A stretch of DNA of 64,000 nt from Bacteroidales bacterium (GTDB lineage: Bacteria > Bacteroidota > Bacteroidia > Bacteroidales > UBA4417). The notes under the pieces are model-generated. The model ran no database searches. It was not told the DNA's origin and was given only the letters and a program-made list of their open reading frames with translations. Below, in pieces: positions 1,960 to 35,366 of this stretch (positions are counted from its first letter, which is position 1; each line of letters opens with the position of its first letter). Position numbers and translations under genes: made by a program. The stretch spans positions 3,285-67,284 of the forward strand of contig JAURYB010000172.1 in the NCBI GenBank assembly GCA_030654075.1. Reading direction: 5' to 3'.

Positions 1960-3462
1960 CTAATATAACTCTTTGTGGCATTCCGAACAGAACTTAGTTT
2001 TCCACTTCTCTTTTATCTGGGTTGGATGTTCAAACGGAAGTGTCGAGTTAATATATGCATTGGAAATATTTCCGGTAGGACCTTGTGCAATAATAGTGTG
2101 ACAGGTTTCGCAATTTCTTGAAATGGTTTCCCCTTTTGCCGTCTTATGCCTGTCGGAGTGGCATCGGAAACAACCTTCCGATTCCAAATGCCCAATGTGA
2201 TTGGGGTATTGACTTGCATCAGCCCTCATATAGGGAAATGCATTCAGGTTGTATTCTGCCTGGACAGCTGCAATCGCCTTCATAATACGTTGTTCCTCCG
2301 ATTTCATCACTTCCGGATGTTCGTCCTTGTAGTATTTAATAATGGTTTCGCTTATCTCACGCATGGCAATCTCTTTATCCTGAAAAGGTAGTTTTAATGC
2401 CTCCATGGCTGCTTCCTTGAAATAAGGCAGATTTTTTGAAATCAGGCCTGTAACGAACGCATTATCAAGATAATCGGGCGCGGATTTAAAGAGATGGGAT
2501 GCGCGGTTGTGACAATCCATGCAATCCATTGTGCGTACCTCCAGTTTATCAAGTGTTTTCTTGTCAAGTGAATTTTCTTCATCCTCGAAAATCTTGACTT
2601 CTCCGGTTTTAAGGTTTGTAAGCTTTACCCATGGTATGCTCTCCCGGTTGCGTGTATCGGAAATATACTCAATCCGGAAATTTTTATTGATATGCCAGTG
2701 TATACCTTCCGAATTACCCATTGATTTGAATTCCGGGCCTATTTTCATGACAAGGGACAGGTTCCATTCGGTGTTGGCTGAATCAGCAAGGTATGAACGT
2801 TGCACACGCAGTTTCCTGGAATAAAATTTTTCGGGCCAGTGGCATCGTTCGCAGGTTTCGCGTTCCGGCCGCATGCTTTGAATAGGAGTGGGGACAGGCC
2901 TTGGGTATTTTTTGAAAAGGGTAGAGTATACCTGGTATAGTCCCGACAGTTTTGATTTAACATACCAGTCGGCACCTTGCCCAACATGACATTCAACACA
3001 GGTAACCCTGGCATGCGACGAATGCTGATACGTTACGTACTCCGGTTCTTCCACCTGGTGACAAAGCTTACCGCAGAACTCATTTGATTCGGTATACTGA
3101 TAAGCCCTGTAACTTCCCATAGCTGAAGCAACAAGGAAAAGTGTGGTGATCAGGAAAATTTTAACCAAGGTTGCCCGATCCATTCTTTGGTTAAGATCGA
3201 ATACCGGCCAGGATTCGTTACGTAGCTGCGCCGCTTTTCTTTTACGGATATTAATAACAACTCCAACCGGAATCAGAATTAATCCCAAAACTAAAAATGC
3301 CGGTAATACGATATAAATGTAGAGTCCCAGGGAAGTGCTGGTTTGTGTTGAAATAACCGAATAAAGATAAAGCACCAGGATTAAAATCAAGCTATTGGCT
3401 GTAACAATAAAGCCCGTTAGGCTTAGCCAGTTGTAAAATGCTTTGATATTTTTATCAGCCAC
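1960..3462 (-). CDS. membrane-anchored multihaem cytochrome c, NapC/NirT-like, ImcH-like architecture (7 haem motifs)
   Basis: 500 aa, GTG start. Two N-terminal hydrophobic helices. Six CxxCH motifs (CVECH, CERCH, CMDCH, CFRCH, CETCH, CSECH) plus CGKLCH (CX3CH) in the NapC-like position just after the membrane anchor. Confidence 0.8.
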   Translation of the reverse strand: MADKNIKAFYNWLSLTGFIVTANSLILILVLYLYSVISTQTSTSLGLYIYIVLPAFLVLGLILIPVGVVINIRKRKAAQLRNESWPVFDLNQRMDRATLVKIFLITTLFLVASAMGSYRAYQYTESNEFCGKLCHQVEEPEYVTYQHSSHARVTCVECHVGQGADWYVKSKLSGLYQVYSTLFKKYPRPVPTPIQSMRPERETCERCHWPEKFYSRKLRVQRSYLADSANTEWNLSLVMKIGPEFKSMGNSEGIHWHINKNFRIEYISDTRNRESIPWVKLTNLKTGEVKIFEDEENSLDKKTLDKLEVRTMDCMDCHNRASHLFKSAPDYLDNAFVTGLISKNLPYFKEAAMEALKLPFQDKEIAMREISETIIKYYKDEHPEVMKSEEQRIMKAIAAVQAEYNLNAFPYMRADASQYPNHIGHLESEGCFRCHSDRHKTAKGETISRNCETCHTIIAQGPTGNISNAYINSTLPFEHPTQIKEKWKTKFCSECHKELY

Positions 3463-3529
3463 CTGGATTCCGGTTATTATGTATTGGTAAAGATATATTT
3501 AATATTCTAAATATATGGATACCTGCAAA

Positions 3530-3543
3530 CTGATTTATATCAA
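3530..3543 (-). promoter_or_regulatory. possible CRP/FNR-type site CTGAT-TTAT-ATCAA upstream of the ImcH-like gene
   Basis: One mismatch to TTGAT-N4-ATCAA, 68-81 bp upstream of the GTG at 3462. I found no TAnnTTTG -7 box at the spacing seen for the other two sites, so support is weak. Confidence 0.3.
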
Positions 3544-3687
3544 TATATTATTGATTGTTGTGCAGTAGTCGTTTTATGGTTTTAAATCGATGAATTCCCT
3601 GATTTTATCGCTCACGTGAAATAATGAAACTGCTTATCCACTTTAAACAAGTTGGGAAGTATTTTGCAGATTGGATTAATAAAAAAG

Positions 3688-3845
3688 GAATTAAGAACAA
3701 GGATTATTCGCTCATTGCTTATTTTAAAACGTGCTCATGAGTCGCTTCGCTTGTTAACGATTTTTGGTTTTTTGATGTGTGTTGAATATCAATGAATTTT
3801 GCTAAACTTCATAAATCGTTAATCAATATTCCTTGTTCTTAAATC
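3688..3845. mobile_element. MITE-like palindromic element, copy 1 (158 bp)
   Basis: Terminal inverted repeats GAATTAAGAACAAGGA / TCCTTGTTCTTAAATC. Subterminal AACGATTT / AAATCGTT pairing. Same ends and subterminal sequence as the element at 46505-46610. Confidence 0.6.
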
Positions 3846-3905
3846 AAAAAGAAAAATCAAACTTGAACGAAGGAGATAAGCAGTATAATTAATAATTAAA
3901 CCCAG

Positions 3906-3945
3906 GAAAAAGCAAAAGCCACTTTTGGGGGAAGTGGCTTTTGCT
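3906..3945 (-). terminator. rho-independent terminator after the 5-gene cytochrome operon
   Basis: 14-bp perfect stem AGCAAAAGCCACTT / AAGTGGCTTTTGCT (3911-3924 / 3932-3945), 7-nt loop. On the minus strand it is followed by a T-rich tract (GCTTTTGCTTTTTCC). Confidence 0.7.
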
Positions 3946-4005
3946 TAAAAATATGTTTTTTAACAAGCTCAAATCTATGTTAAGCAAGGAAAAATTAGTC
4001 TATGC

Positions 4006-4908
4006 TTATGCTTTATTGCTTTCTTCAGGAGGTATTTTTGAAGATTTATTGATCATAACCAATTGTACCACTGCATACACATAATGTCCCCAAACACCCA
4101 GAAGCATTACGATAAGTGTTATAATCATCCAGAGTGGCGCAATGGGCGTCCACAATTCCCGCGAAGGACGATCCGGACTAATCAGGTGTTTATGCAATCC
4201 CCAGTTTTTATCAGATGAGCCTTGAACCGTGCCGAAAATATCATTTTCCTCAATAGAGGCAACAACAGTCAGATTTCCGGTTGAATCACCAATAATGTCG
4301 CGGGGAAATTCAGCTGTACCAATACCGGTTGAATCAAGAGATATTTCAGCAATTTTAAGCATGCTGAACATTTTCGGGACTGATATAATTACATCAACCG
4401 CTCCGATTGATACTTCAGTGCCATCGCTGTTAAGCTGAGTTCCTTCAACTTTCACATACCTGATGGAGTCTTCTTCATAAAATGAAACTACCAGTTTTGC
4501 CGGTTTAAGGCCAAATTCACCTTCTGAAGCTTCGTATTTGTCATTGCCATCATACATCGCTTTAAATGAAAGCATCTGCTGATCGTTGCGAAGGAATGTG
4601 TTACGTGCCGGGATTTTGAGAACCGCAGTTCCATGAACATCAGTTTTTACCTCGCCAATCTTCAGATCTCCATCTTTCTCAACAGAGTAAAAAATAACCG
4701 GCGCATTTACCAGGTTAGTACTTCCATCGTCGTGTTTAACACTAACAACACTTTTTAACTGTATGCTGTCGTCAGAAGTACTGACACAGGCAAATCTTAA
4801 TACTGTGACAGCCGGGCTGGTGGTATCAGCATTATTCCGGGCAAATCCCTGCATCATTCCTGCCAGGAATAAGATGACAAGTATGATTCCTGTTTTTATC
4901 CTTTTCAT
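4006..4908 (-). CDS. signal-peptide protein with beta-rich (Ig-like?) ectodomain and C-terminal TM anchor; last gene of the cytochrome operon
   Basis: 300 aa. N-terminal signal (GIILVILFLAGMMQGFA), long beta-strand-like body, C-terminal helix LWMIITLIVMLLGVWGHYVYAVVQLVMI. 47 bp downstream of the NrfD-like gene, same strand. Confidence 0.55.
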   Translation of the reverse strand: MKRIKTGIILVILFLAGMMQGFARNNADTTSPAVTVLRFACVSTSDDSIQLKSVVSVKHDDGSTNLVNAPVIFYSVEKDGDLKIGEVKTDVHGTAVLKIPARNTFLRNDQQMLSFKAMYDGNDKYEASEGEFGLKPAKLVVSFYEEDSIRYVKVEGTQLNSDGTEVSIGAVDVIISVPKMFSMLKIAEISLDSTGIGTAEFPRDIIGDSTGNLTVVASIEENDIFGTVQGSSDKNWGLHKHLISPDRPSRELWTPIAPLWMIITLIVMLLGVWGHYVYAVVQLVMINKSSKIPPEESNKA

Positions 4909-4955
4909 AAAAAAATCTTTTTGTCCTGTTTACTAATTAACTTATTGTAAATCTG

Positions 4956-6281
4956 TTACCTCAGATAAATGTCACCCGCTTCTTTAGGTTCCTCCTTAAG
5001 ATCAGAAACCTGAACAATGGGTATCATTTTTGAAGCCAGGGTGAAAAGCAGACAGAAGAGTGCAACACCACCTGCTGTAAGCGACCATTCAACCCATGTG
5101 GCTGAATAATGTGCCCATGCATCACGTGACTCCTGGATAGGAAGATAAGGTGATTCGAGTGTTGGCACTACAATAAGGTAGCGGTTCAGCCATAACGCAA
5201 TAATAACAATGAATGCTGCTATGGTAATGTTATTGATTGTGCGCAGTTTCTTAAAACCCACAACAATCAACGGAACCAGAACACCGATGTAATTGGAAAG
5301 GATAAACAAAGAGTAATAATCCTTGAACAGGATGGCTATAAGTTGTTCGTCATTTTTTTCAGAACCATACCATTTTGTGAGGTATTCGCTGAAGGTAAAG
5401 TAACCAAAGAAGGCAGCAAGTACCAGCATGATAACTCCAACATTCACGAAGTGTTTTAATGTAATATGTTCTTCCAGATGGTACACTTTTCGGAAAAAAT
5501 ACATAGCCACAATAAGTACGCCGGTACCGGAATATACAGCAGCAATAACGAAATACGGGCCGAAGATGGTGCTATGCCAGCCTGGCTGTAAGGTTACACT
5601 GAAAATCCATGCGAGTACGGAGTATACTATAATTGCAATGGCAATAACCATTCCTGCCATAATATCCGTTGATTTTTTCAACCGTAATTGCTGTTCGGGT
5701 GTTCCTGTATAACCAATGGCAAGAATTTTGTACATTTTTTTCTTCCAATTCGGAACTTTCAGTTCGTCAAAATCGCGGAGTTTAGCCAAATCGCGTAAAA
5801 GTGCCAGGTACAGGAAAAGTATACATCCGAATATATCGGTTGATATAGCAATAACGTCCCAGGTAATTGGCGACTGAATACGCCCGAAGAGAATAAGATT
5901 CGGAAGACGGTCGAGGCGGCCGATACACATCATGATAAAGCCCGGGCCTATTAAAAGTGAGATTATGGTGATAAACTCAGCCATACGGATTATAGGTTTC
6001 CTCCATTCAGCATGAAAAAGATGCAGTGCTCCCGAAATAAGTGCTCCCGCGTAACTGATACCCATAAAAAAGATGAAGTTCACGATGTAAACACCCCATA
6101 CAACGTTGTCGCGCATACCGGTAACAATATGCCCGCGCGAAACCTGCCAGTAAAGGGCGAAAAAACCTAACAGAACAACACCAACAAGAAATGTTATCCA
6201 CAGTTTACCCAGTGTTCCGGTGTGCTCAATCTGAGGCGCAAATTCCCGGAGTAAAATTTTCGAACTAGCCGTATCGCTCAT
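4956..6281 (-). CDS. NrfD/PsrC-family polytopic membrane quinone-interacting subunit
   Basis: 441 aa with about 10 hydrophobic helices. The ATG overlaps the stop of the upstream ferredoxin gene (TAATG). Gene order FeS-NrfD is typical of NrfCD/PsrBC/Hmc modules. Confidence 0.8.
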   Translation of the reverse strand: MSDTASSKILLREFAPQIEHTGTLGKLWITFLVGVVLLGFFALYWQVSRGHIVTGMRDNVVWGVYIVNFIFFMGISYAGALISGALHLFHAEWRKPIIRMAEFITIISLLIGPGFIMMCIGRLDRLPNLILFGRIQSPITWDVIAISTDIFGCILFLYLALLRDLAKLRDFDELKVPNWKKKMYKILAIGYTGTPEQQLRLKKSTDIMAGMVIAIAIIVYSVLAWIFSVTLQPGWHSTIFGPYFVIAAVYSGTGVLIVAMYFFRKVYHLEEHITLKHFVNVGVIMLVLAAFFGYFTFSEYLTKWYGSEKNDEQLIAILFKDYYSLFILSNYIGVLVPLIVVGFKKLRTINNITIAAFIVIIALWLNRYLIVVPTLESPYLPIQESRDAWAHYSATWVEWSLTAGGVALFCLLFTLASKMIPIVQVSDLKEEPKEAGDIYLR

Positions 6282-7243
6282 TACAGGGTCTCCTTATTTT
6301 TAAGATTTTTTACATAGGGGGTATTTTCAAATCTCTTGGTAACTTCCTCATCCAGGCCATCAAGTCCGCGTTCGAACGGGAATTGCCTGTCGACAGGTGG
6401 GAGATAATATACATTCGGACGGGTTCCAAGGTTATCAAGGTATTTGTAGCCGGAACGGTCGCGGATCAGTTCACTGAATTTAAAAGTTTCGGTTCCGTTG
6501 GTTACAACATCTTCGTCAATGTCGCCAAAATAGATAACTCCCATCGGGCAAGCGGATGCACAATACGGTAGCTTCCCTTCGCGGGCGAGGTCAGGACAGA
6601 AATCGCATTTGGAAACCGTTCCTTCAACACCCGGAACACTTTTCTCAGGTGAATAAGGCTGATCCGACTCATAAGCTTCTTCTGCTTTCCATGAAAATAC
6701 ACGTGTTGAATACGGGCAGCCTGTCATACAGAACTTACAACCGATACAGCGTTCGTTATCAATAAGCACAATACCATCGCTGCGCTTGTAGGTTGCACCA
6801 ACAGGACAAACACTCACACACTGGGGGTTATCGCAATGGTAGCATGGTTTTGGAAACCAGTAAGGTGCCGTTTTCTCTGAATCCTGCATAAGGTAAACTT
6901 TCATAAACTCCTGGTCTTTAGGAAGGTTATGTCCTTTTTGGCATTCCTCAACACACTTACGGGCATTTTTACATTTAGCCAGGTCAATTACCATAACAAA
7001 CTTACGGCCAGGAATACCTTCGTGGGATTCAACGCGGCCAACCGGCGCAAGTGTGAGGAAATTTTTATCTACTTCCATCACTTCACCTGAAGTGGTAAGT
7101 ACTTTGATCTTTTCACCTGATTCGCCGGAATTTTTACCAGTTGCTATCAAAGCTCCTGTTGCAACAGTACCGGCACCAGCCAACAAACCCAGTTTCAGGA
7201 AATTTCTCCGCGAGTTGTTGTCATCTTTCTTTTTATTTTCCAT
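6281..7243 (-). CDS. Tat-exported 4Fe-4S multi-cluster ferredoxin (NrfC/HybA/DmsB-like)
   Basis: 320 aa. Twin-arginine signal SRRNFLKLGLLAGAG. Cys clusters CKNARKCVEEC, CYHCDNPQCVSVCP, CIGCKFCMTGCP, CDFC...CASACP. Confidence 0.85.
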   Translation of the reverse strand: MENKKKDDNNSRRNFLKLGLLAGAGTVATGALIATGKNSGESGEKIKVLTTSGEVMEVDKNFLTLAPVGRVESHEGIPGRKFVMVIDLAKCKNARKCVEECQKGHNLPKDQEFMKVYLMQDSEKTAPYWFPKPCYHCDNPQCVSVCPVGATYKRSDGIVLIDNERCIGCKFCMTGCPYSTRVFSWKAEEAYESDQPYSPEKSVPGVEGTVSKCDFCPDLAREGKLPYCASACPMGVIYFGDIDEDVVTNGTETFKFSELIRDRSGYKYLDNLGTRPNVYYLPPVDRQFPFERGLDGLDEEVTKRFENTPYVKNLKNKETL

Positions 7244-7322
7244 GGTAAGCCATTTTAATGTTAAGTGATGAGGAAGTTTCGATCAATTCCGAACAGTAAG
7301 CTTTTCAGCTACCTGTCAGATT

Positions 7323-7940
7323 TCAGTGTGATTCGTGAAAGCCATTGATCATGCTCTTAAAATTACTTACAAAAGTTGCTCCTATGGTGCAGAAATATAT
7401 GTGAACAAACATAAAAAAGGATACAAAAAAACCAATAATGACATGGATAAAGTCATTGACTTTTATTCCGCTACCACTAAAAAATTTGGTTAAAACCACT
7501 TCGGGGTACAATAAAGCCCATCCGGTAATTATAACAATAGGCACAAGCACAAACATGGCAATTACATAGGTAAACTGTTGTAAAGGATTGAATTTGCTTT
7601 CTTTTGTAACAGGGAACGGAGGTCTTTCGTGTTTGAAAATACCAAATGTATAATACGTAAACTGTTTTATCAGCCTGGCAAATAAGCCTTTAAATGATAA
7701 TTTGTAATATTTTCCGTTAGGAGTGATAAAAGTTCCGATCAGAAATATCATATAATTAGCTGTGAGTATCATTCCGCTGATATTATGCATGGTAACAGCA
7801 ATATCGAACCTGATAAACGGGTTAGCCGGATTTGTATATTGCATACTTACACCGCTGATGATCAGGAGGATGATAAGAATGGCATTTAAGGCATGCCAGA
7901 GCCTGATCCACATGGGATATAGATATATTTTTTGTGACAT
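7323..7940 (-). CDS. dihaem b-type cytochrome membrane subunit (HydC/FdnI/PhsC-like, Ni_hydr_CYTB type)
   Basis: 205 aa, 4 TM helices with conserved His (WHALN, MHNISG, IHVIIG, VHIYF). The ATG overlaps the stop of the upstream haem-c gene (TAATG). Confidence 0.7.
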   Translation of the reverse strand: MSQKIYLYPMWIRLWHALNAILIILLIISGVSMQYTNPANPFIRFDIAVTMHNISGMILTANYMIFLIGTFITPNGKYYKLSFKGLFARLIKQFTYYTFGIFKHERPPFPVTKESKFNPLQQFTYVIAMFVLVPIVIITGWALLYPEVVLTKFFSGSGIKVNDFIHVIIGFFVSFFMFVHIYFCTIGATFVSNFKSMINGFHESH

Positions 7941-8923
7941 TATTTCTTACGTTTTATAATTCTGAGTGTTGCATGAATTGCTATACCAAATGCTACGCAT
8001 CCGAACATGATTAAACTTATCAATCCAAGGTAATAATTACGGTTGGCACCAATAACATATCCTTCGTTCATGATAACTCCGTTATAAAATCCGGCTTTGC
8101 TGCGTTCTTCCTGCACTTTGTATTTGTAAAGTGAAGCCATAAGGATTGAGTTGGTTGAATGACACTCAACGCACCTTCTTACTGCTTTTGCTTTTGGCTG
8201 AATATTATGTGCTACCAGGATTGAATCGTTGGTTCGCGCATGGCACTCGATACAACGGACATTTTTGAAATGCAGCGCCTGGTTAGGCAACCAGTCATGT
8301 TTTTGGAGGATATTGGGATTCACTTTATCCGTGAGCATCTGGTACTTGGTAATATCGGCGTGGCAATTCAGACAAATAGCGTTATCGTAAGCTACAATAT
8401 CTCTGATTTTTTCGTCCGAACGGGCGTTGATTTTATAGGTATGCGGATTATGACACATCCAGCAGTTAAAATCATCGCTGTGCTTTGTTGAATGCACACT
8501 CGACTGGAATTCAGTTTCAATATCTTCAAATTTAAATTTGGCATATGCTTCATCTCCGCCATGGCAGTCGATACAGGCATATTTCGATTCCATCCGCAAG
8601 CGTCCCGGGTGTGGGAAAGTATCATAGTCGGCAGAATGGCAATCTGTACATTTAAATGTTTTATGGTTTGATTCGTAAAATTCGGTACGGTTAATAATGG
8701 TTTCGAGGTACATTCTCTTGGTTACTTCGGTACCTGATTCCGGATTATTATATTTATACTTGGATTGCCCGTGACATTTCAGGCAATCTTCGTTGATTTT
8801 AATTGTTTCATCTTTGGGTTTGTTTTGGGCTTTTAATGTAATCGACATCATCGAAAAAAAGAAGAATGTCAAAATAAAAGCAACAGGAACTTTCCGGAAA
8901 TATGGAGTGAAAAGTGAAGTCAT
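7940..8923 (-). CDS. heptahaem cytochrome c with C-terminal membrane anchor
   Basis: 327 aa. Signal peptide. Seven CxxCH motifs (CLKCH, CTDCH, CIDCH, CWMCH, CLNCH, CIECH, CVECH). C-terminal helix LGLISLIMFGCVAFGIAIHATL. Confidence 0.85.
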   Translation of the reverse strand: MTSLFTPYFRKVPVAFILTFFFFSMMSITLKAQNKPKDETIKINEDCLKCHGQSKYKYNNPESGTEVTKRMYLETIINRTEFYESNHKTFKCTDCHSADYDTFPHPGRLRMESKYACIDCHGGDEAYAKFKFEDIETEFQSSVHSTKHSDDFNCWMCHNPHTYKINARSDEKIRDIVAYDNAICLNCHADITKYQMLTDKVNPNILQKHDWLPNQALHFKNVRCIECHARTNDSILVAHNIQPKAKAVRRCVECHSTNSILMASLYKYKVQEERSKAGFYNGVIMNEGYVIGANRNYYLGLISLIMFGCVAFGIAIHATLRIIKRKK

Positions 8924-8961
8924 TTTTTTTGAAAAAATTAGTAGAACAGGAATTTTTGAGG

Positions 8962-9005
8962 CAAAAAAAATAAAGGGTGTTCTGATTTTATCCTGAACAC
9001 CCTTT
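8962..9005 (-). terminator. rho-independent terminator after the cytochrome c gene
   Basis: Stem AAAGGGTGTTC / GAACACCCTTT (8972-8982 / 8995-9005). On the minus strand it is followed by ATTTTTTTTGCC. Confidence 0.8.
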
Positions 9006-9019
9006 ATCTGGCAAACAAA

Positions 9020-9436
9020 TTACTTTTTCATAGTACGGATATAGCCAATAACAGCCCATCTGTCAGCAACGTCTAAAATTTTCTTTTCGAAGTTAGGCAT
9101 TTCGTCGCGGCCGATAAATGACATGTAATAAAGTTCTCCATCAGTTTTAGCCTGGAATGCTGCTTTTGAAAAATCACCTGTTAAGGTTTTGAGGTTCGCG
9201 GCTTTTGGGCCATCACCTAGACCTTTTGCTCCATGGCATGATTTGCAATGCTTGTTGAAGTTTTCTTTTCCAATCGTGTTGATTGATGCGTCACCAGCTT
9301 TTACAGTACTTTTCATGTTTTTGTAAGTTGCCGGGATTGTCCAGGGACCGCCAGCTTTTTGTGCTATAGCCATATTGGCTGTTACAAAAGCAATAGCGGT
9401 GCAAATAATTGCGATAAGTTTAATTGAATTTCTCAT
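9020..9436 (-). CDS. class I monohaem cytochrome c (periplasmic)
   Basis: 139 aa from ATG 9436. Signal peptide MRNSIKLIAIICTAIAFVTANMAIAQ, single CKSCHG, distal Met region DEMPNF. The track ORF start at 9517 would overlap the upstream gene and adds a non-signal N-terminus. Confidence 0.8.
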   Translation of the reverse strand: MRNSIKLIAIICTAIAFVTANMAIAQKAGGPWTIPATYKNMKSTVKAGDASINTIGKENFNKHCKSCHGAKGLGDGPKAANLKTLTGDFSKAAFQAKTDGELYYMSFIGRDEMPNFEKKILDVADRWAVIGYIRTMKK

Positions 9437-9504
9437 TTTGTTTATTTTATTAGTTATATCTGTTTTGGTGCAAAAATTATTCCAAATAAGGGGGGGTGTA
9501 GCAT

Positions 9505-10443
9505 TTAGAAATTCCACAGACGGGTCAGATTGAATCCAATCATAATGCCTTTATTGAAAAAATCATGATTATTCCACATAATATCTTCCTGAGGCAGAAT
9601 TCCCTGTGCTGATGCTAAATAGATCTGAAATGCATGGGTGCTTGTTGATATCTCGACACCAATAGAGATGTTAGGCTTATCATAAATGATAGTTGTTTTA
9701 TCAGAGTCTTTCTTGTAATCTTTAATTGCTGAGATATCCAAAGGGAAATCACCGGCAACAATCAAAGAACCTTGCGGTGAGAATTTATACCTTCCTGCAA
9801 ATGACAAGGAAACTCTGTCGTGATCATAAACTGAATCAACGCAGTTGTAATGTGTGAATGCTCCACTAGCTTGTAACGATAGGTGATCATTAAACCTGCG
9901 CGATACTATCAACTCGGTAAAGGATGATATTCTGTTCGAAAATTTATAGCCGGCTGATCCTTCATTCTGATCCCAGGTAGCTTTGTCTCTACCATCAACC
10001 CCTATAACTTCGTGCAAAACTATAGTTACAGGAATGCTGTTTGAACGGGTTTGTTCAATAATTCTGTACTTAAGCTGTAAATCCTGTAATCTATTTATTT
10101 TAGTGGTTCCAACCCCTACAGTAAGATTGTCAAGAATACTGTAATTTAAACCTACTCGGATGTTAGAGGATCCCCAGATTCCAAAAAAGTCTTTAGCGCC
10201 ATCCGTATATCCAAACCGATGCTGAAGAATGAATTCCAGCGTTTTTGCTGGTGAAACGGTTGTGGTTGTTGCATCAAACAATAATCCGCTTTCGAAAGCG
10301 GGACGTACCGGACGTTCTTTCGGTGTTTCCTGAACAGTAGTATCCTGAGTGGCTTCTTCCTGTGCAAAGGTGGTTGAATTAAATATCAGCAATGTTAAGA
10401 CCATCAAAGCGCTGAAGCGGAGTATCTTATATATGTTTTTCAT
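9505..10443 (-). CDS. predicted outer-membrane beta-barrel protein (DUF5777-like from memory), paralog of 15243-16157
   Basis: 312 aa. Signal peptide ending FAQ, alternating amphipathic strands, C-terminal GFNLTRLWNF ending in Phe. Clear similarity to the 304-aa ORF (LEFILQHRFG/LQFLVEHNFG, IRVGLNY/VRLGLEY, HAFQIYL/HVFQFRL). Confidence 0.6.
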   Translation of the reverse strand: MKNIYKILRFSALMVLTLLIFNSTTFAQEEATQDTTVQETPKERPVRPAFESGLLFDATTTTVSPAKTLEFILQHRFGYTDGAKDFFGIWGSSNIRVGLNYSILDNLTVGVGTTKINRLQDLQLKYRIIEQTRSNSIPVTIVLHEVIGVDGRDKATWDQNEGSAGYKFSNRISSFTELIVSRRFNDHLSLQASGAFTHYNCVDSVYDHDRVSLSFAGRYKFSPQGSLIVAGDFPLDISAIKDYKKDSDKTTIIYDKPNISIGVEISTSTHAFQIYLASAQGILPQEDIMWNNHDFFNKGIMIGFNLTRLWNF

Positions 10444-10473
10444 ATTTTATGTATTTTCTGATTATAAATGAGC

Positions 10474-10851
10474 TTAGTCGTTTTTTGCGCCTGCAGTGAT
10501 CCACCGGAAAATAAGAAGTAATCTATCCGATGAAGTATAGGGTGCCATGCTGCCGCCAGGTTTGCATTTAGTATATAGCGAACTGGTTTCAGGACTTTCT
10601 GCTACTACATAGTTACCTGTCATAAGAGCATTGTATGAATTACCTGTAGTAAGCAAAGGTTTTTGACTATTTGAATGGCAACTAATGCACTTTGCGTCAA
10701 AAATTGGTTGAATGTCTGACAAGAAACTGATAGTGTCGTTCTCAATTACTGGTGGTGGGGGAGTTGGTACAATATAATCATATTCGCAGGCTGTCAGCAG
10801 GGTGATCAATGTGCCTGACAGGAATAATAATCTGAGAAATCTCTTTTTCAT
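10474..10851 (-). CDS. small haem-c lipoprotein, PSCyt1 (Planctomycete cytochrome C)-like
   Basis: 125 aa. Lipobox LLTAC, single CISCH, C-terminal ...MAPYTSSDRLLLIFRWITAGA resembling the PSCyt1 'MPP...L..e....i..WI..GA' tail. Paralogous to 13857 and 14357. Confidence 0.65.
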   Translation of the reverse strand: MKKRFLRLLFLSGTLITLLTACEYDYIVPTPPPPVIENDTISFLSDIQPIFDAKCISCHSNSQKPLLTTGNSYNALMTGNYVVAESPETSSLYTKCKPGGSMAPYTSSDRLLLIFRWITAGAKND

Positions 10852-11001
10852 TGGTTAATTATTTGTTGGTTGTTTTAGATTTTGAGACAGGCTTTTTGTT
10901 ATAAATTTAACAAAGCTACTGTGGTTATTTGATTCGTACAAAGGAATACTTTTATCCTGAAATAGTGCATTAATTAAATATGATTGTTTGACACTATTAT
11001 T

Positions 11002-11045
11002 TTGATACTTATCAACCGATATATTGATATATGTCATTATCTTTG
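11002..11045 (+). promoter_or_regulatory. perfect FNR box TTGATACTTATCAA plus -7 box TATCTTTG upstream of the Crp/Fnr gene
   Basis: TTGAT-N4-ATCAA at 11002-11015. TAnnTTTG-type -7 box at 11038-11045. Palindrome centre lies 29.5 bp before the box, the same spacing as at 13718-13762. Confidence 0.6.
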
Positions 11046-11129
11046 TACGCGAATTGAAGGGTAAAGATTCTACTGTTAAAACCAGATTGGATACTATATT
11101 TTCCTTCATTTAATATAAAAATTAGATCT

Positions 11130-11828
11130 GTGAATCAATATACTCAATATATAAAAGGATGCAGTTCATGCAAAGACAAAGCTGAAATATTCAGTTGTTT
11201 GTGCCAGACCGAGCTAGACCAGATTGATGAAAAACGTATTGAAGTGCATTTTAAAGCGGGTGAACTTATCTTTAAGCAAGGTACTCCCAATATGCATTTC
11301 CTGTGTTTAACCCAAGGTAAAGTTAAAACGTATATTGAAGGCTATAACGATAAAAATCTTATCCTGGGTATTGTTAAACCTGTCGAATATATTCTTGGAC
11401 CTGGAATTTATGCTGACCAGATGCATCACTTTTCGGCTATGGCTATCGAGGATTCAGTCGCATGCCTTGTTGACCTGGTTACGTTTAAGTCTCTCATCCG
11501 GAATAATCCTGATTTTGCGGAAGATTTTCTAAAAAAAATCAGCCTGCAATCAATTTATAATTACGAACTTTTCATCAGCCTTACACAAAAGCAAATGCCA
11601 GGGCGAATTGCCGATGTATTGCTTTACCTGAAAGACAAAGTTTACGAATCCAATCCATTCCGTACTTCGCTTTCGAGGCAGGATTTAGCTGATATGTCGG
11701 GTATGTCGAAGGAAAGTGCCATTCGTATCCTAAGGGAGTTTAAAGACGAAGGTATTATTCAGGTGAATGGCAACGATTTCGAGATATTAGATACTGAACA
11801 TCTTAGTAAGATCAGTCAAACAGGATAG
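11130..11828 (+). CDS. Crp/Fnr-family transcription regulator with N-terminal Cys cluster (FNR-like)
   Basis: 232 aa, GTG start. cNMP-binding-type beta-roll, C-terminal HTH (SRQDLADMSGMSKESAIRILREF). N-terminal C11-x2-C14-x8-C23-x-C25 (GCSSCKDKAEIFSCLC). Confidence 0.85.
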   Translation: MNQYTQYIKGCSSCKDKAEIFSCLCQTELDQIDEKRIEVHFKAGELIFKQGTPNMHFLCLTQGKVKTYIEGYNDKNLILGIVKPVEYILGPGIYADQMHHFSAMAIEDSVACLVDLVTFKSLIRNNPDFAEDFLKKISLQSIYNYELFISLTQKQMPGRIADVLLYLKDKVYESNPFRTSLSRQDLADMSGMSKESAIRILREFKDEGIIQVNGNDFEILDTEHLSKISQTG

Positions 11829-11858
11829 AATCATTTCCAGTTTCAATGTTTAAAAAAT

Positions 11859-11888
11859 AGCCCGGGTACTGCGCCAAGTGCCCGGGCT
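11859..11888. terminator. bidirectional hairpin terminator between convergent genes
   Basis: Stem AGCCCGGGTAC / GTGCCCGGGCT (one G-T pair), 8-nt loop. T-rich on the plus side (TTAATGTTTT) and on the minus side (ATTTTTTA). Confidence 0.55.
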
Positions 11889-11910
11889 TAATGTTTTAAA
11901 ATGTATACTA

Positions 11911-11977
11911 CTTATCACTTATCACTTATCACTTACACCTTATCACTTACACCTTATACCTTACACCTTATCACTTT
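11911..11977. repeat. period-7 degenerate tandem array (CTTAYMM, about 9.5 units)
   Basis: cttatca cttatca cttatca cttacac cttatca cttacac cttatac cttacac cttatca ctt. Overlaps the stop codon of the S41 peptidase gene. Confidence 0.85.
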
Positions 11978-13581
11978 CCCTGTGATAATTTCTGGAACAA
12001 GGAGTCATTCTTAATTACATCTATAGCCTGATTCAATTCATCGTCTGTAGTGCTGATCATTTGGAAATAAGCATTCATATTAAATAAATTCCTGGCAATA
12101 AGTGCTTTTAGAACTGTTTTTATTTGTAGCCCTGATGCCTCCAGATCCTTATCGTTGCGAGGTAAATCTTTCGATTCAGCAAAAGCTACAAATTCATCCA
12201 GCAATTTCTGGTCATCGGTAAATCCTTTTTTAAATGCTTGTATATCAGGATACGTTTTGAGAAGGTCTTTGCGCCTGGTCTCAATATATTGCACTGTAAA
12301 TTCGTTCAGCAGCGATTTGCGAAAAACATCAGTGTAATATTTCGAAGCAAATGCAGTATCCATAGGAATAAAGTAGTCGGGCATAATTCCACCACCTCCG
12401 TAAACAACACGTTTATTCTGGGTAAAATACCTCAGTGAATCAGGGAATTTAATACTATCGGCATGGTACATTTCACCATGTTTTAATCGTTTGTAAAGGT
12501 CATCACCATATTCTTCTTCACCATCAGCATATGATTTTTGGATACAACGGCCCGAGGGAGTATAATAACGTGCTGTTGTAATACGAACCATTGAGCTATC
12601 GGGAAGCATGTAAGGCCGCTGAACCAGGCCTTTCCCAAATGACCGCCTTCCGATAATCAGGCCACGATCCCAATCCTGCACAGCGCCTGAAACAATTTCA
12701 GAAGCTGACGCTGAACCTTCATCAATCAGGACTACCAGTTTGCCTGTTTCGAATGTACCGCTAGAGGTGGCAATAAAATCCTGTTTAGGGCTACGTACAC
12801 CTTTAGTATATACTACAAGTTTACCAGCAGGTAAAAATTGGTCGGCCAGATCAAAAGCTATATTCAGATAACCACCTGAATTTCCCCGAAGATCGAAGAT
12901 AAGGTTTTTCATCCCCTGCTTTTTTAAAGCATTGGCAGCGTCAATAAATTCGTCTGTTGAAGTGGCTGCAAAACGCGAAAGTTTTATATATCCTATATTA
13001 GTGGTAACCATATAGGAAGCATCTATACTGTTAAGTGGAATTTTGTCCCGTGTTATGGTATAGTCAATCAGTTCTTTATGCCCTTTGCGGTAAATGGCAA
13101 CATCTACTTTGGTCCCTCTTGGACCACGCAGGTGGTCGAGTACGAATTGGGTAGTCAGTTTTTTGCCAAAAGCATCTTCACGGTTGATCTTGATGATTTT
13201 ATCTCCAGCCAGAATACCTAATTTATCGGAAGGCCCGCCTGGAACAGGCGAAATAACTAATATTGTATCCTTATAAATCTGAAACTGAATACCAACGCCA
13301 TCAAAGTTTCCGACCAATGGCTCATTGGTTTTTTCAACTTCATCTTTTGAAATATAAACGGAATGCGGATCAAGTTCTTTCAGTACCGCTACAATTGCTT
13401 CTTCAGTTAACTTTGGCTGATCAACATCTTCGACATAGTAATAGTTTATTAACTGCATCAGTGTGTTGAACTTCATTGTGGTTGACTTAGGATCAACCGA
13501 CTTTTGTTTTGTTTGAGCTGAGGAGCTTATGATTATGATGAGAAGAAAGAATACTATCAGGGAATATTTAGCTAATTTCAT
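11971..13581 (-). CDS. S41-family C-terminal processing (tail-specific) peptidase
   Basis: 536 aa. Signal peptide, PDZ-like segment (GGPSDKLGILAGDKIIKIN), S41 catalytic region (VLIDEGSASASEIVSGA...RRSFGKGLVQ). Confidence 0.85.
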   Translation of the reverse strand: MKLAKYSLIVFFLLIIIISSSAQTKQKSVDPKSTTMKFNTLMQLINYYYVEDVDQPKLTEEAIVAVLKELDPHSVYISKDEVEKTNEPLVGNFDGVGIQFQIYKDTILVISPVPGGPSDKLGILAGDKIIKINREDAFGKKLTTQFVLDHLRGPRGTKVDVAIYRKGHKELIDYTITRDKIPLNSIDASYMVTTNIGYIKLSRFAATSTDEFIDAANALKKQGMKNLIFDLRGNSGGYLNIAFDLADQFLPAGKLVVYTKGVRSPKQDFIATSSGTFETGKLVVLIDEGSASASEIVSGAVQDWDRGLIIGRRSFGKGLVQRPYMLPDSSMVRITTARYYTPSGRCIQKSYADGEEEYGDDLYKRLKHGEMYHADSIKFPDSLRYFTQNKRVVYGGGGIMPDYFIPMDTAFASKYYTDVFRKSLLNEFTVQYIETRRKDLLKTYPDIQAFKKGFTDDQKLLDEFVAFAESKDLPRNDKDLEASGLQIKTVLKALIARNLFNMNAYFQMISTTDDELNQAIDVIKNDSLFQKLSQGK

Positions 13582-13717
13582 AAATTCCTAAGGGATTAAA
13601 ATTGAATTTCAAAATTACATGATTTATCGCATAAATTGTGGCAATTGTTTGCCATTCGTTATGCATTTAACAATTTTTCTCATTTCATATCGTTTATAAT
13701 GAATATAAATAGATAGC

Positions 13718-13762
13718 TGTGATATAAATCACAAAATGGAGCTTAAAAAGCGCGTAAATTTG
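13718..13762 (+). promoter_or_regulatory. perfect CRP/FNR-type palindrome TGTGATATAAATCACA plus -7 box TAAATTTG upstream of the second cytochrome/barrel operon
   Basis: 16-bp palindrome at 13718-13733 (core TGAT-N4-ATCA). TAnnTTTG box at 13755-13762. Centre-to-box spacing 29.5 bp, giving roughly -42 relative to a TSS a few nt after the box. Confidence 0.6.
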
Positions 13763-13856
13763 CATTAGGTTGAAAATGCCTCAATTGGAGTTAAGAAAGG
13801 CCTTAAATACCTGTAAACTATTTTCACAGGAAATCTTCCTTTTAATTTTTTTATAA

Positions 13857-14240
13857 ATGAAAACACGAATAATTAGTGCATTGGCCGGATTGATACTTTT
13901 AAGCATTTATCTAACTTCCTGCAAGCATGAACCGGAACTCCCGCCAGGCACACCCATAGTTTGTTTCGACCAGGATGTTATGGGCATTATTAATTCGAAT
14001 TGCAATGTACCCGGTTGCCACGGTGATGGTGAAGGGCCTTCTCTATCTACTTTCGAAGATGTTTCCAGCTATGTCACCGCAGGCAAACCAATGCAAAGCG
14101 AGCTTCATAAAGTAATTACGGCACACTCGAACCTGGAGGGGTTAATGCCTCCCAAACCAAAATCAGCACTTTCCAGTTCACAGATTGATATTATAAGCAT
14201 CTGGATATTGCAAGGCGCGACTCATACCACCTGTCCCTAA
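13857..14240 (+). CDS. small PSCyt1-like lipoprotein with CX4CH motif
   Basis: 127 aa. Lipobox YLTSC, motif NCNVPGCHG (C-x4-CH), tail LMPPKPKSALSSSQIDIISIWILQGA matching the PSCyt1-type ending. Confidence 0.65.
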   Translation: MKTRIISALAGLILLSIYLTSCKHEPELPPGTPIVCFDQDVMGIINSNCNVPGCHGDGEGPSLSTFEDVSSYVTAGKPMQSELHKVITAHSNLEGLMPPKPKSALSSSQIDIISIWILQGATHTTCP

Positions 14241-14356
14241 ACTCATTGCGATGGTTTTCAAGCGGGATCTACTGTTCCATATACAAATATTTAACAGTAT
14301 TTTGAACAATTGATATATAAATGTATTTTAATAGAATGCTAATCAAAAAATCTTCA

Positions 14357-14743
14357 ATGAAAACAAAAATAAAAGTATTCCTTGCATCTGTATTGGCACT
14401 TACACTTGCGATCAGCGGTTGTTATTATGACAATGAAGAAGACTTATACCTGGGAAGCAGCGCCTGTGATACAACAAATGTAACCTACCTCAATACTACT
14501 TCAGGTGAATTAGCTATTGAGAAAATTTTTGAACATAATTGTAATTCATGCCATAGTGGAAGTACTCCATCCGGGAATATTAAGACTGACAATTATGAGG
14601 CTGTAAAAGCCAATATTATCCGGATCAGAGGAGCAATTAACCACCAATCAGGCTTTCAGGCAATGCCTCAAGGTGGCAGCCTGTCATCCTGCGACCTGAC
14701 GAAAATTGATATCTGGATCAGAAAAGGGATGCTGAACAATTAA
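14357..14743 (+). CDS. small haem-c lipoprotein, PSCyt1-like
   Basis: 128 aa from ATG 14357 (MKTKIKVFLASVLALTLAISGC lipobox). CNSCH motif, tail AMPQGGSLSSCDLTKIDIWIRKG. The track start at 14321 adds 12 non-signal residues. Confidence 0.65.
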   Translation: MKTKIKVFLASVLALTLAISGCYYDNEEDLYLGSSACDTTNVTYLNTTSGELAIEKIFEHNCNSCHSGSTPSGNIKTDNYEAVKANIIRIRGAINHQSGFQAMPQGGSLSSCDLTKIDIWIRKGMLNN

Positions 14744-14766
14744 CCATTTAGATAAAATTAAAGGGT

Positions 14767-15204
14767 ATGAATAAAAAACTTAAAATCGGGCTTATAATAC
14801 TGGCAATCGGACTTGTAGCTGCAGCCCTTGTTTGGAAATTTTATGTAAACAAACCTCATGATGATATAGAAAAAGCAACCGCGGCTTATTCTGTTTCGAC
14901 CGAAGAAATTTGGAATAAGTACAATACCGACCGGAGAACAGCCGATTCGTTGTACAATGACCAGGTGATTGAAGTTACCGGCAGCCTGAGCCGTATCGAT
15001 AAAAATGACACATTGGTATCGGCCATATTTGTAATGGCGGCTGACTCAATGTTTGGTGATAAAACCATTGCCTGTCAGATGTATAAAAAGCACAATGAAG
15101 AAGCGGGCACATTAGTGGTTGGCTCAAAAGTTAAAATTAAGGGTGTTTGTATCGGATTTGATGATACCGATATTAAATTTAATAAATGTTCAATAGTCAA
15201 ATAG
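14767..15204 (+). CDS. N-terminally anchored OB-fold protein (tRNA_anti-like family, from memory)
   Basis: 145 aa. TM helix IGLIILAIGLVAAALVW, then a pattern typical of Bacteroidota tRNA_anti-like/OB proteins (YNDQVIEVTGSL...GSKVKIKGVCIG). Confidence 0.5.
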   Translation: MNKKLKIGLIILAIGLVAAALVWKFYVNKPHDDIEKATAAYSVSTEEIWNKYNTDRRTADSLYNDQVIEVTGSLSRIDKNDTLVSAIFVMAADSMFGDKTIACQMYKKHNEEAGTLVVGSKVKIKGVCIGFDDTDIKFNKCSIVK

Positions 15205-15242
15205 TTACTTTGTTTTTCAGGTTAAAGGATAAATAAAACAGT

Positions 15243-16157
15243 ATGATACGAAATAAAATACTTGCAATCTTCCTGTTTCTCATGGTCTTCAGCGGTCAAT
15301 TATTTGCGCAGGATCTGATGGACATGTTAAAGGATGAGACTCCTAAAACGAATTATGCTTACGCTACTTTTAAAACAACCCGTGTTGTTTTGGGGCAATC
15401 GGTTGAAAGCCCTGCTAAAGGTACCCTTCAGTTTTTGGTTGAGCACAACTTTGGCAAACTGAACGAAGGAGCATATGCGATGTGGGGATTGGATCAATCC
15501 ACAGTAAGGCTGGGATTGGAATATGGGATTAAAGATTGGTTGAGTGTCAGTATTGGCAGAAGTTCCTATCAAAAGACATTTGATGGATCGGTTAAAATTA
15601 AATTACTCAGGCAGAGTACAGGTGCCCGGAAAATGCCGTTTTCCATGTCATTATATGGAGGCACCATGTTAAATTCATTAAAATGGACAGATCAAACCCG
15701 CAATAATTACTACACTTCGCGCTTGTCTTATCTGGCACAAGTACTGATCGCAAGAAAGTTCTCGAATGCTTTTTCTGTACAATTAACACCTACTTATATT
15801 CATAAAAACCTGGTCCCACTGAGGACCGATCGCAACGATCAATTATCAATTGGCATTGGGGGAAGGTACAAAGTTTCACAGCGCACCAGTTTAAATGCAG
15901 AGTATTTTTACCAGATTCCCGGATTTATTAATTCCGATCCGGTTTCAGGTTCTGAATACCGTAATTGCTTATCAGTAGGAGTTGATCTTGAAACCGGCGG
16001 CCATGTATTCCAGTTCCGGCTTACCAACGCGCAGCCAATGTTTGAACGTGCTTTCATTACTGAAACAACCAGCAAGTGGACGGATGGAGGTATTTTCCTT
16101 GGTTTTACAATAAATCGTGTATTTACTATTATTAAGCCGTCCGTTCCGAAAGAATAG
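15243..16157 (+). CDS. predicted outer-membrane beta-barrel protein (DUF5777-like), paralog of 9505-10443
   Basis: 304 aa. Signal peptide ending FAQ, amphipathic strand pattern, barrel-closing GFTINRVF near the C-terminus. Alignable along its length with the 312-aa ORF. Confidence 0.6.
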   Translation: MIRNKILAIFLFLMVFSGQLFAQDLMDMLKDETPKTNYAYATFKTTRVVLGQSVESPAKGTLQFLVEHNFGKLNEGAYAMWGLDQSTVRLGLEYGIKDWLSVSIGRSSYQKTFDGSVKIKLLRQSTGARKMPFSMSLYGGTMLNSLKWTDQTRNNYYTSRLSYLAQVLIARKFSNAFSVQLTPTYIHKNLVPLRTDRNDQLSIGIGGRYKVSQRTSLNAEYFYQIPGFINSDPVSGSEYRNCLSVGVDLETGGHVFQFRLTNAQPMFERAFITETTSKWTDGGIFLGFTINRVFTIIKPSVPKE

Positions 16158-35274: not shown

Positions 35275-35292
35275 TTGATAGTTTTTTAGGTT

Positions 35293-35334
35293 AAAACCAC
35301 TAAGGCACTAAGAACACAAAGAACCACTAAGGAG
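35293..35334. repeat. CACTAAGG micro-repeat block
   Basis: aaaaccactaaggcactaagaacacaaagaaccactaaggag. Same family as 21276-21318 (inverted). A single unit occurs at about 30604. Confidence 0.75.
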
Positions 35335-35366
35335 TTAAAATTAGCATCGTTAATAACTATTTTCTA

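Follow-up and report, generated by a model that had tools for sequence, protein, structure and literature searches.

We show that a 64-kb stretch of the 76,959-bp contig JAURYB010000172.1 (the stretch is hereafter the window; proteins MDO9257603-617), from a metagenome-assembled genome (MAG) labelled Bacteroidales bacterium, carries a conserved cytochrome locus, unit 1 (1960-11828), in which an FNR-type regulator is transcribed divergently from genes for a monohaem lipoprotein, a DUF5777 barrel, a class-I cytochrome c, CbcA-like and CbcB-like proteins, a variable NrfC-NrfD-B module and an ImcH-like protein. Unit 1 probably delivers respiratory electrons to, or takes them from, some partner at the cell envelope. 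The fuller reading that we favour, on which our confidence is evenly divided, is that it represents a respiratory electron-transfer operon under anaerobic regulation in an uncultured, Lentimicrobiaceae-like member of the Bacteroidales, with a CbcBA/ImcH chain leading to a Cyc2-like split cytochrome-channel module. ImcH and CbcBA are quinol oxidases of extracellular electron transfer (EET) in Geobacter, and what appears to be new here, judging from the genes, is the joining of Geobacter-type quinol oxidases to a new outer-membrane module. The nearest relatives of the window in a genome-collection scan were Lentimicrobiaceae and Bacteroidales MAGs.

Open reading frame (ORF) calling combined with Pfam and NCBIfam searches upheld the gene positions and domain calls of an earlier note made on this DNA from its letters alone, and recovered its two barrels, its three haem-motif lipoproteins (I, M and N; gene letters as in Table 1) and its FNR-like regulator. 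All six c-type-cytochrome genes of the window fall within 1960-14743 and no haem motif was found in any other ORF of the window, so the clustering of the cytochromes is not due to chance; the remaining genes are housekeeping genes. Where the earlier note described a five-gene operon around the seven-haem cytochrome, we found eight genes, I-H-G-F-E-D-C-B, which lie on one strand and are tightly spaced or overlapping. Within them H and I are distinct genes with 30 nt between them. Neither L, an S41 peptidase, nor O, an OB-fold protein, is a redox protein. The start of G is probably Met28 (position 9436), which gives a protein of 138 residues matching the lengths of its orthologues, and that of N is probably 14357. 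ORF J (10855-11109) was rejected as a gene: it has no orthologue even in relatives 93-99% identical, and it overlaps the divergent promoter and its FNR box.

The order of the genes in unit 1 is conserved well beyond the window. All ten H-type barrels are placed between lipoprotein I and the cytochrome c-CbcA-CbcB genes. The four loci whose H-type barrels are 56-65% identical run from FNR, lipoprotein, DUF5777, cytochrome c, CbcA and CbcB to a variable module and sometimes a second cytochrome c, with ImcH ending the order in three of the four. A scan of metagenome contigs with a CbcB alignment yielded 80 loci at 53-96% identity, which we annotated with hidden Markov models built from the window families. 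Among those with sufficient upstream sequence to be counted, CbcA was present in 59 of 59, the I-type lipoprotein in 34 of 34 and DUF5777 in 38 of 39, the lone exception lying at a contig edge.

The module downstream of this core occurs in four states, namely NrfC-NrfD-B, nothing (L002, L005), a hexahaem cytochrome of ~445 residues, or a 929-residue protein whose 19 haem motifs and cytochrome b domain correspond to the architecture of CbcL. Such variation fits a set of interchangeable quinol oxidases. In distant operons, moreover, a hexahaem lipoprotein lies directly upstream of the monohaem lipoprotein and matches an MtrC/MtrF domain with 37.6 bits (cut-off 30). These hexahaem lipoproteins (L116:6408-7478, L061:6366-7733, L064:6953-8299 and L056:3704-5059) have the MtrC/MtrF II-IV domain and, right after the lipobox, a linker of collagen-like Gly-X-Y repeats (e.g. 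SCTKEGPAGQDGVDGAVGPAGPQG), which is possibly a stalk keeping the cytochrome off the membrane. In L056, L061 and L064 the collagen-linker protein follows a second type of ImcH. Relatives of the NrfCD-B type (L042, L055, L069) have a DUF2867 gene and a 124-residue membrane gene, corresponding to 452-1882 and 2-376 of the window, and after these come another cytochrome c and a second ImcH, which shares 61% identity with the first. By this comparison, unit 1 probably continues to the left of window position 1, where a cytochrome c, a second ImcH and a hexahaem lipoprotein may lie.

None of 10 genome loci and ~45 long metagenome loci holds a catalytic subunit of the molybdopterin, copper, sirohaem or pentahaem-NrfA type. 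The flanks of these loci consist of housekeeping genes (Asd, IspG, kinases, riboflavin kinase, cytochrome c maturation genes), with two kinds of exception, a TorD/NarJ-like chaperone at three loci and a ResB-like cytochrome c maturation gene, which Pfam confirmed in L116 only. The absence of a terminal-reductase catalytic subunit, reported earlier for the window, thus holds for the related loci as well, and the orthologous clusters show no consistent linkage to a known terminal reductase, a linkage that had been named beforehand as grounds for giving up the electron-transfer reading. The three chaperone genes (PF02613, TorD/NarJ/DmsD family) adjoin the FNR gene at L039:7871-8539, L040:8011-8649 and L041:8026-8658, with no nearby molybdoenzyme and no NrfC. 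At another locus a monofunctional riboflavin kinase (PF01687, 143 bits) lies directly downstream of ImcH (L086:12292-12771), and ORFs of 150-172 residues occupy the equivalent spot in L077, L079, L099, L105, L111, L118 and L119; this neighbourhood could reflect a flavin link or coincidence.

The quinol-oxidising candidates of unit 1 carry the published diagnostic features of their Geobacter counterparts. ImcH of Geobacter sulfurreducens is an inner-membrane heptahaem menaquinol oxidase of the NapC/NirT family that serves high-potential extracellular acceptors. A matches the NapC/NirT N-terminal domain (PF03264, 45.9 bits, cut-off 24.1) and an NrfH-like model (61 bits), and aligns with the NrfH structure 2j7a at E=3e-4. 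Three hydrophobic helices (residues ~12-35, 45-70 and 98-118) stand at its N terminus, and of its seven haem motifs the first is an atypical CX3CH (CGKLCH, residues 130-135) and the other six are CXXCH; the 14 cysteines and seven histidines of these motifs are all invariant in six orthologues down to 62% identity. ImcH is described as a protein of 495-519 residues with three transmembrane helices, one CX3CH and six CXXCH motifs (PMC6295460), and a biochemical preprint gives the same architecture and reports homologues in Bacteroidota (bioRxiv 2023.05.03.539133). A agrees in its 500 residues, its helices, its membrane-proximal CX3CH and its NapC/NirT homology, and it has a Glu immediately ahead of haem 1 and a conserved Lys in SKLSG, nearly at the positions reported as E127 and K173. 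It differs in its setting, since it is found in Bacteroidales in one cluster with CbcBA and NrfCD, and relatives of its operon hold a second ImcH paralogue.

F and E bear the same kind of resemblance to CbcBA. In F, seven CXXCH motifs and a His317 in the C-terminal transmembrane helix are invariant across 11 orthologues down to 49% identity, and its stop overlaps the start of E. E matches PF01292 (Ni_hydr_CYTB) with 84.6 bits and NF011582 with 180.9 bits, below the cut-off of 204, and its His16, 52, 166 and 180 do not vary among orthologues as distant as about 50% identity. Searches against the PDB found no relative of E and, for F, one weak cytochrome c match only (28pb). In Geobacter, CbcA is a heptahaem cytochrome with a His-bearing C-terminal helix and CbcB a neighbouring cytochrome b, usually annotated as thiosulfate-reductase-like; CbcBA is required near the low-potential limit of respiration, and homologous clusters have been noted in Bacteroidetes (Marinilabiliales, Prolixibacter, Labilibaculum) (Joshi et al.). 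The window pair reproduces this arrangement, with a His-bearing C-terminal anchor on the heptahaem protein and an adjoining, overlapping PhsC-like cytochrome b of four transmembrane helices. In contrast to Geobacter, which uses the sigma-54 regulator BccR, the window has a Crp/Fnr regulator with a TTGAT-N4-ATCAA box. Two further differences are that the CbcB-like E retains four transmembrane histidines and that the window operon includes a lipoprotein cytochrome, a DUF5777 protein and a class-I cytochrome c, none of which is listed for the Geobacter operon. The putative placement of A, F and E in the ImcH and CbcBA clades is based on these sequence features and on the literature.

The third membrane module is of the NrfCD type. 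C matches PF03916 (NrfD) with 114 bits and a DsrP-like model with 85 bits, below cut-off. D, nearest to DsrO/NrfC, matches Fer4_11 with 74 bits and DsrO with 168 bits, under the cut-off of 200, and has a weak TAT_signal match (18.3 bits, cut-off 22.7) together with the twin-arginine motif SRRNFLKLG. Like DsrOP, Qrc, Cbc3/Cbc6 of Geobacter and NrfCD, the module combines a four-cluster ferredoxin exported by twin-arginine translocation (Tat) with an NrfD membrane subunit. It departs from them in scoring under every equivalog cut-off, in lacking a catalytic partner, in being optional within the operon family and in coming with B, a novel anchored protein of 300 residues. B has no relative in Pfam, NCBIfam or a PDB profile search; it is always downstream of NrfC-NrfD and co-occurs with them in at least 16 loci. 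Its most conserved region is the C-terminal transmembrane helix with the segment before it (RELWTPIAPLWMIITL...GVWGHYVY), including an invariant Trp, His275 and Tyr, suggesting that it touches NrfD within the membrane or binds a cofactor or quinone. The likely carrier for these modules, G, matches PF00034 and PF13442, and its CKSCH motif and distal Met are invariant in orthologues.

I, M and N are very likely monohaem c-type cytochromes. They and their orthologues share a lipobox, a haem motif and a C-terminal WIxxGA helix, with a distal GSM or MP motif in most. The haem-motif Cys and His are invariant in an alignment of 34 sequences (A4). I has the lipobox LTAC, a Pro-rich linker, CISCH, GGSM and WIxxGA, and among 41 I-type orthologues the spacing of the haem motif varies between CX2CH, CX3CH and CX4CH. 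The CX4CH, MPP and WILQGA of M are kept in ~30 orthologues, and N is kept in 37 of 38 genome loci. Directly after the lipidated Cys, I has CEYD(Y/F) and the Pro-rich linker and N has the acidic stretch CYYDNEEDLY; these acidic stretches appear to resemble the surface-export signal of Bacteroidota. M of the window and its nearest relatives is a single domain ending in HTTCP, and in many other genomes (L013, L016, L018, L021, L029, L030 and others) its CX4CH domain is fused to a second, N-like CXXCH domain.

Remote homology places this lipoprotein family near known redox cytochromes. Searched against PDB sequences, the family profile matched the haem domain of hydrazine synthase alpha (HZS-alpha) at 1.5e-5, the Rhodobacter Fe(II) oxidoreductase FoxE at 8e-5, the Geobacter electron-uptake cytochrome PccH at 3.7e-4 and cytochrome c6 at 0.01. 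Pfam matches of I, M and N to Cytochrome_CBB3, PccH and PSCyt1 were all sub-threshold. The lipoproteins had earlier been called PSCyt1-like, a similarity that is present but sub-threshold, FoxE, PccH and the HZS-alpha haem domain being closer. The matches to FoxE and PccH include the CXXCH region and the C-terminal WIxxGA helix; FoxE, however, is a soluble dihaem protein and PccH is soluble, whereas the window proteins are lipoproteins with CX2-4CH motifs.

The partner of the lipoprotein belongs to a moderately large family to which, as far as a literature search could find, no paper refers. H and P, which are 26% identical, match PF19089 (DUF5777) with 221.8 and 313.5 bits (cut-off 23.1). P has more than 7,700 homologues, and the family comprises 2,262 representative clusters (at 50% identity) at E<=1e-3, or 1,562 at E<=1e-10, and occurs in Bacteroidales, Balneolaceae, Rhodothermales and one MAG labelled Deltaproteobacteria. 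An AlphaFold2 model of H from an 88-sequence alignment (mean predicted local distance difference test, pLDDT, 80.9) has 12 long strands, and H ends in a C-terminal Phe. Foldseek aligned the model with COG4313, FapF, OmpG, NanC and Tsx in the PDB (E ~1e-5, TM-scores 0.4-0.5), which are small monomeric or trimeric channels. The best of them was the COG4313 channel, from a family that carries hydrophobic molecules. The model fits H being a small-molecule outer-membrane channel, not a cytochrome-sheathing porin. An independent link between such barrels and haem-motif domains comes from the DUF5777 representative P0511 (456 residues), a natural fusion of an N-terminal CXXCH motif, a Reeler domain and a DUF5777 barrel. 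A second representative, P0476 (615 residues), has two DUF5777 barrels in tandem. H75, H198 and H270, together with R96, K125, R218, K220 and R308 (H numbering), are invariant across H-type and P-type barrels, and the same three His motifs are visible in a Balneolaceae DUF5777 sequence; as conserved residues, these could form a metal, haem or anion site.

Anoxia-linked control of unit 1 by an FNR-like regulator is plausible from the regulator and its candidate site. K matches PF00027 and PF13545 and reaches 56.8 bits against the NCBIfam Fnr model, far under the cut-off of 228. Its N-terminal Cys motif is CxxCx8CxC, of which distant orthologues retain only CxxC(xC), and it is divergent from the operon in nearly all loci. 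The TTGAT-N4-ATCAA sequence between I and K is the sole perfect palindrome in the 64 kb (1 observed vs 0.33 expected). All 11 related loci examined have a counterpart with 0-2 mismatches between their FNR and lipoprotein genes, and its offset is near-identical among the members of a sequence group. Across the window, FNR boxes were not significantly enriched (7 one-mismatch sites vs 6.9 expected), so it is positional conservation alone that carries weight; the one-mismatch site upstream of A is weak evidence on its own.

The earlier note had joined all these genes with M, N, O and P into one 14-kb island. Our comparisons instead separate two independent units. The second, unit 2 (13857-16157), comprises lipoproteins M and N, the OB-fold protein O (PF12869, 58 bits; no meaningful match in the PDB), which is kept between N and P, and the DUF5777 barrel P. 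We scanned the genome collection with patterns specific to P-type barrels, a search that samples orthologues of P, not the whole DUF5777 family, and obtained 38 species-level loci, nearly all of which keep L, M-N-O-P and a rhomboid gene in one and the same order. The cytochrome block is present as well in six alone, the closest relatives; the other 32 have none of the island's cytochrome genes within 10 kb, and eight of these that we inspected closely have no multihaem gene within that distance. In genome OY782677, M-N-O-P (L037) and the cytochrome block (L042) are at separate places. The adjacency of the units in the window is therefore lineage-specific, and the single island was rejected. 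Unit 2 is a paralogous envelope module of like kind, conserved in its own right and not part of the unit 1 chain.

Barrel-lipoprotein sets also occur outside the Bacteroidales. In Balneolaceae and Rhodothermales, including the cultured aerobes Gracilimonas and Balneola, a CX4CH lipoprotein and a YceI-family protein precede the barrel, and these sets have no linked multihaem genes except for one TPR-multihaem gene ~6.5 kb off in L045. In Gracilimonas (L043:8886-9548) the lipoprotein-YceI-DUF5777 genes are followed by a PSCyt1-domain protein with a type 9 secretion system signal (Por_Secre_tail), and in a Rhodothermales MAG (L045:9496-16858) they abut a complete haem-biosynthesis cluster. Since the sets exist in aerobes and without multihaem genes, the pair is a generic envelope module and not specific to EET. 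Its generic function may be an envelope redox task, from which the pair encoded beside CbcBA would have been recruited to a more specialised use.

We infer the localisation, order, direction and substrate of the unit 1 chain from these features as follows. At the inner membrane, menaquinol would give up its electrons to as many as three alternative modules, the CbcBA-like pair, the accessory NrfC-NrfD-B and the ImcH-like heptahaem cytochrome, and the electrons would then pass to the soluble class-I cytochrome c G and from it to I, the monohaem FoxE/PccH-like lipoprotein. I would work with the 12-strand outer-membrane channel H, its redox partner arriving through H or I itself being displayed at the surface. 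Since a barrel of 12 strands with one haem cannot conduct electrons across the outer membrane, we favour a model like that of Cyc2, in which it is the substrate that travels to the haem; most likely, H would admit a small redox substrate to the haem of I, such as chelated Fe(III) or Mn, Fe(II), or a shuttle. In operon relatives, the MtrC-like hexahaem lipoproteins would extend the chain to the cell surface. The ImcH, CbcL-like and MtrC-like parts point to the reduction of extracellular acceptors. The FoxE/PccH homology and the His/Met carriers of class I speak instead for oxidation or the uptake of electrons, or at the least for partners of high potential.

The proposed arrangement resembles that of Cyc2, the fused monohaem cytochrome-porin that serves neutrophilic and acidophilic iron oxidisers as Fe(II) oxidase. 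Both systems have one haem c domain associated with an outer-membrane beta-barrel and followed by a class-I periplasmic cytochrome. In Cyc2, however, an N-terminal CXXCH domain and the porin form one polypeptide, whereas I and H are separate genes; H is modelled with 12 strands, against ~16 predicted for Cyc2, and no sequence relationship between the two was detected. A fusion does exist in P0511, with a different haem domain. It is tempting to hypothesize that DUF5777 barrels and monohaem CX2-4CH lipoproteins make up an unrecognised outer-membrane redox module, a split analogue of Cyc2 of which one copy has been built into a Bacteroidales CbcBA/ImcH operon, a proposal that we put forward tentatively.

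Several points weigh against the respiratory chain that we favour. The evidence is throughout comparative, drawn from the genes of one MAG; the window version has no multihaem outer-membrane cytochrome, although one may lie beyond the left edge; and an AlphaFold2 model of I, from a three-sequence alignment, reached a pLDDT of 43.8 and was unusable. Class-I His/Met cytochromes are atypical of Geobacter-type reductive EET. The sets of DUF5777 and lipoprotein cytochrome in YceI-bearing aerobes, and in genomes without linked multihaem genes, also mean that the pair may have a non-respiratory role in the envelope.

It is conceivable, if rather unlikely, that the chain runs in reverse, so that electrons from Fe(II), a cathode or a partner would pass via DUF5777 to I, then to G, and then to CbcBA/ImcH acting in quinone reduction or to an oxidase or reductase encoded elsewhere, in an oxidation of the Cyc2/FoxE type. 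The lipoprotein profile does match an Fe(II) oxidase and an electron-uptake cytochrome, FoxE and PccH, but these matches are remote and lie mostly over the haem-binding core. Monohaem His/Met cytochromes with a class-I periplasmic carrier are likewise the layout of known Fe(II) oxidisers, as in Cyc2-Cyc1 (PMC10654088), and quinol oxidases of the related CbcL/MtoC family are found in Fe(III) reducers and Fe(II) oxidisers alike; ImcH homologues, however, have so far been reported in Fe(III) reducers only (PMC6295460). Reversal is further disfavoured by the MtrC-like and CbcL-like reductive-EET parts of the operon relatives, by the lack of a linked oxidase or nitrate reductase, and by the description of the host family as fermentative anaerobes.

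A role of the DUF5777-lipoprotein pair in general envelope maintenance also seems improbable to us, at a level with the reversed chain. The pair would then reductively detoxify outer-membrane lipid radicals or oxidants, or traffic haem, iron or lipid, drawing electrons from the quinol pool in unit 1, and CbcBA/ImcH would mainly feed unlinked periplasmic reductases. Such a role is suggested by the M-N-O-P sets of ~38 species genomes, most of them away from the island's cytochrome genes, by the CX4CH lipoprotein-YceI-DUF5777 set of aerobic Balneolaceae and Rhodothermales, one of which adjoins the haem-biosynthesis cluster, and by the COG4313 channel as best fold match of H; YceI lipocalins and cytochrome b561 are known to act against lipid peroxyl radicals (PMC9113575). 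In unit 1, however, the pair almost invariably shares its operon with CbcBA and a cytochrome c of its own, which speaks for a specific partnership in respiration, relatives have MtrC-like and CbcL-like neighbour genes, and FNR-type control suits use under anoxia, not oxidative stress.

The earlier note had also drawn a parallel with MtrCAB/Pcc conduits. Porins of the Mtr/Pcc type have roughly 20-26 strands. In its general parts list (quinol oxidase, periplasmic carrier, barrel, lipoprotein cytochrome) the window does recall these systems, and relatives have a hexahaem lipoprotein with an MtrC domain, but the window lacks both such a porin and the periplasmic deca- or octahaem cytochrome inserted in it, its lipoproteins are monohaem only, and its only multihaem periplasmic candidate is the membrane-anchored CbcA. 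With H modelled at 12 strands and a single-haem partner, the parallel does not extend to a porin-sheathed haem wire. A true wire, with I threading through or docking in DUF5777 and electrons passing straight across the outer membrane to minerals or electrodes, is very unlikely given the strand number of H, the inability of one haem to span the membrane and the same pair in aerobes without EET genes, even though a conserved operon joins barrel, lipoprotein cytochrome, periplasmic cytochrome and quinol oxidases, I has a Pro-rich linker and I and N acidic residues after the Cys that may resemble the surface-export signal, and enrichment on conductive particles is on record for Lentimicrobium MAGs that encode numerous multihaem cytochromes (PMC13013709). 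The trans-envelope electron-transfer proposal is thus supported in part, by the ImcH/CbcBA features, the conserved H-I linkage, the absence of a linked reductase, the MtrC-like and CbcL-like parts of distant operons and the conserved position of the FNR-type box; the Mtr-type wire and the membership of unit 2 are not supported.

The coordinates of the genes and sites are collected in Table 1. Between the convergent genes K and L, a 12-bp GC-rich hairpin (AGCCCGGGTACT...AGTGCCCGGGCT) at 11859-11888 is probably a bidirectional terminator. No Rfam family was found in the window. Elsewhere in the window, 33070-36413 (- strand) encodes a 734-residue fusion of a class-V aminotransferase (NifS/selenocysteine-lyase-like) with selenophosphate synthetase domains (AIRS, AIRS_C), adjoined by a 348-residue rhodanese-domain protein, which we take to be possibly SelU; the two look like a selenium-utilisation gene pair. 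Genes for an Fe/Mn superoxide dismutase (18512-19090), a flavodiiron-type protein with ODP beta-lactamase fold and flavodoxin (48881-50098) and the aerotolerance protein BatA (53373-55439) point to an oxygen-tolerant anaerobe.

Table 1. Genes and candidate regulatory sites of units 1 and 2 in the window, with assignments predicted from sequence
Feature	Position	Strand	Assignment
A	1960-3462	-	ImcH-like inner-membrane heptahaem quinol oxidase, NapC/NirT-type, 500 aa
FNR/CRP-like site CTGATTTATATCAA	3530-3543		1 mismatch, ~70 bp upstream of A
B	4006-4908	-	300-aa secreted protein, signal peptide and C-terminal transmembrane helix, no family
C	4956-6281	-	NrfD/PsrC-type integral membrane quinone-interacting subunit
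D	6281-7243	-	Tat-exported NrfC/DsrO-type 4Fe-4S ferredoxin
E	7323-7940	-	CbcB-like dihaem cytochrome b, PhsC-like
F	7940-8923	-	CbcA-like heptahaem cytochrome c, 7 CXXCH
G	9020-9436	-	Periplasmic class-I monohaem cytochrome c
H	9505-10443	-	DUF5777 outer-membrane barrel
I	10474-10851	-	Monohaem lipoprotein cytochrome, CISCH
FNR/CRP palindrome TTGATACTTATCAA	11002-11015		Divergent I/K promoter region
K	11130-11828	+	Crp/Fnr-family regulator
L	11971-13581	-	S41 peptidase
M	13857-14240	+	Lipoprotein with CX4CH haem motif (unit 2)
N	14357-14743	+	Lipoprotein with CXXCH (unit 2)
O	14767-15204	+	Membrane-anchored OB-fold protein, tRNA_anti-like (unit 2)
P	15243-16157	+	Second DUF5777 barrel (unit 2)

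Bacteroidota are abundant in sediments, in digesters and on electrodes. To our knowledge, the mechanism of EET is understood almost only in Geobacter and Shewanella, and we know of no described route past the outer membrane in Bacteroidota. Five genes, for the lipoprotein cytochrome, DUF5777, cytochrome c, CbcA and CbcB, emerge from our analysis as a compact core, accompanied by ImcH and interchangeable modules. This core turns up in dozens of Bacteroidales contigs from the environment without ever being linked to a classical terminal reductase, and it provides a marker set for metagenomic surveys. It also gives DUF5777 a first functional context and yields a testable hypothesis, namely that a small channel and a FoxE/PccH-like haem lipoprotein together form an outer-membrane redox site; any function proposed for the pair must explain its stand-alone occurrence in aerobes. 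If true, a split Cyc2 analogue would provide Bacteroidota with a way of their own to pass respiratory electrons to, or receive them from, iron or other redox species outside the cell.

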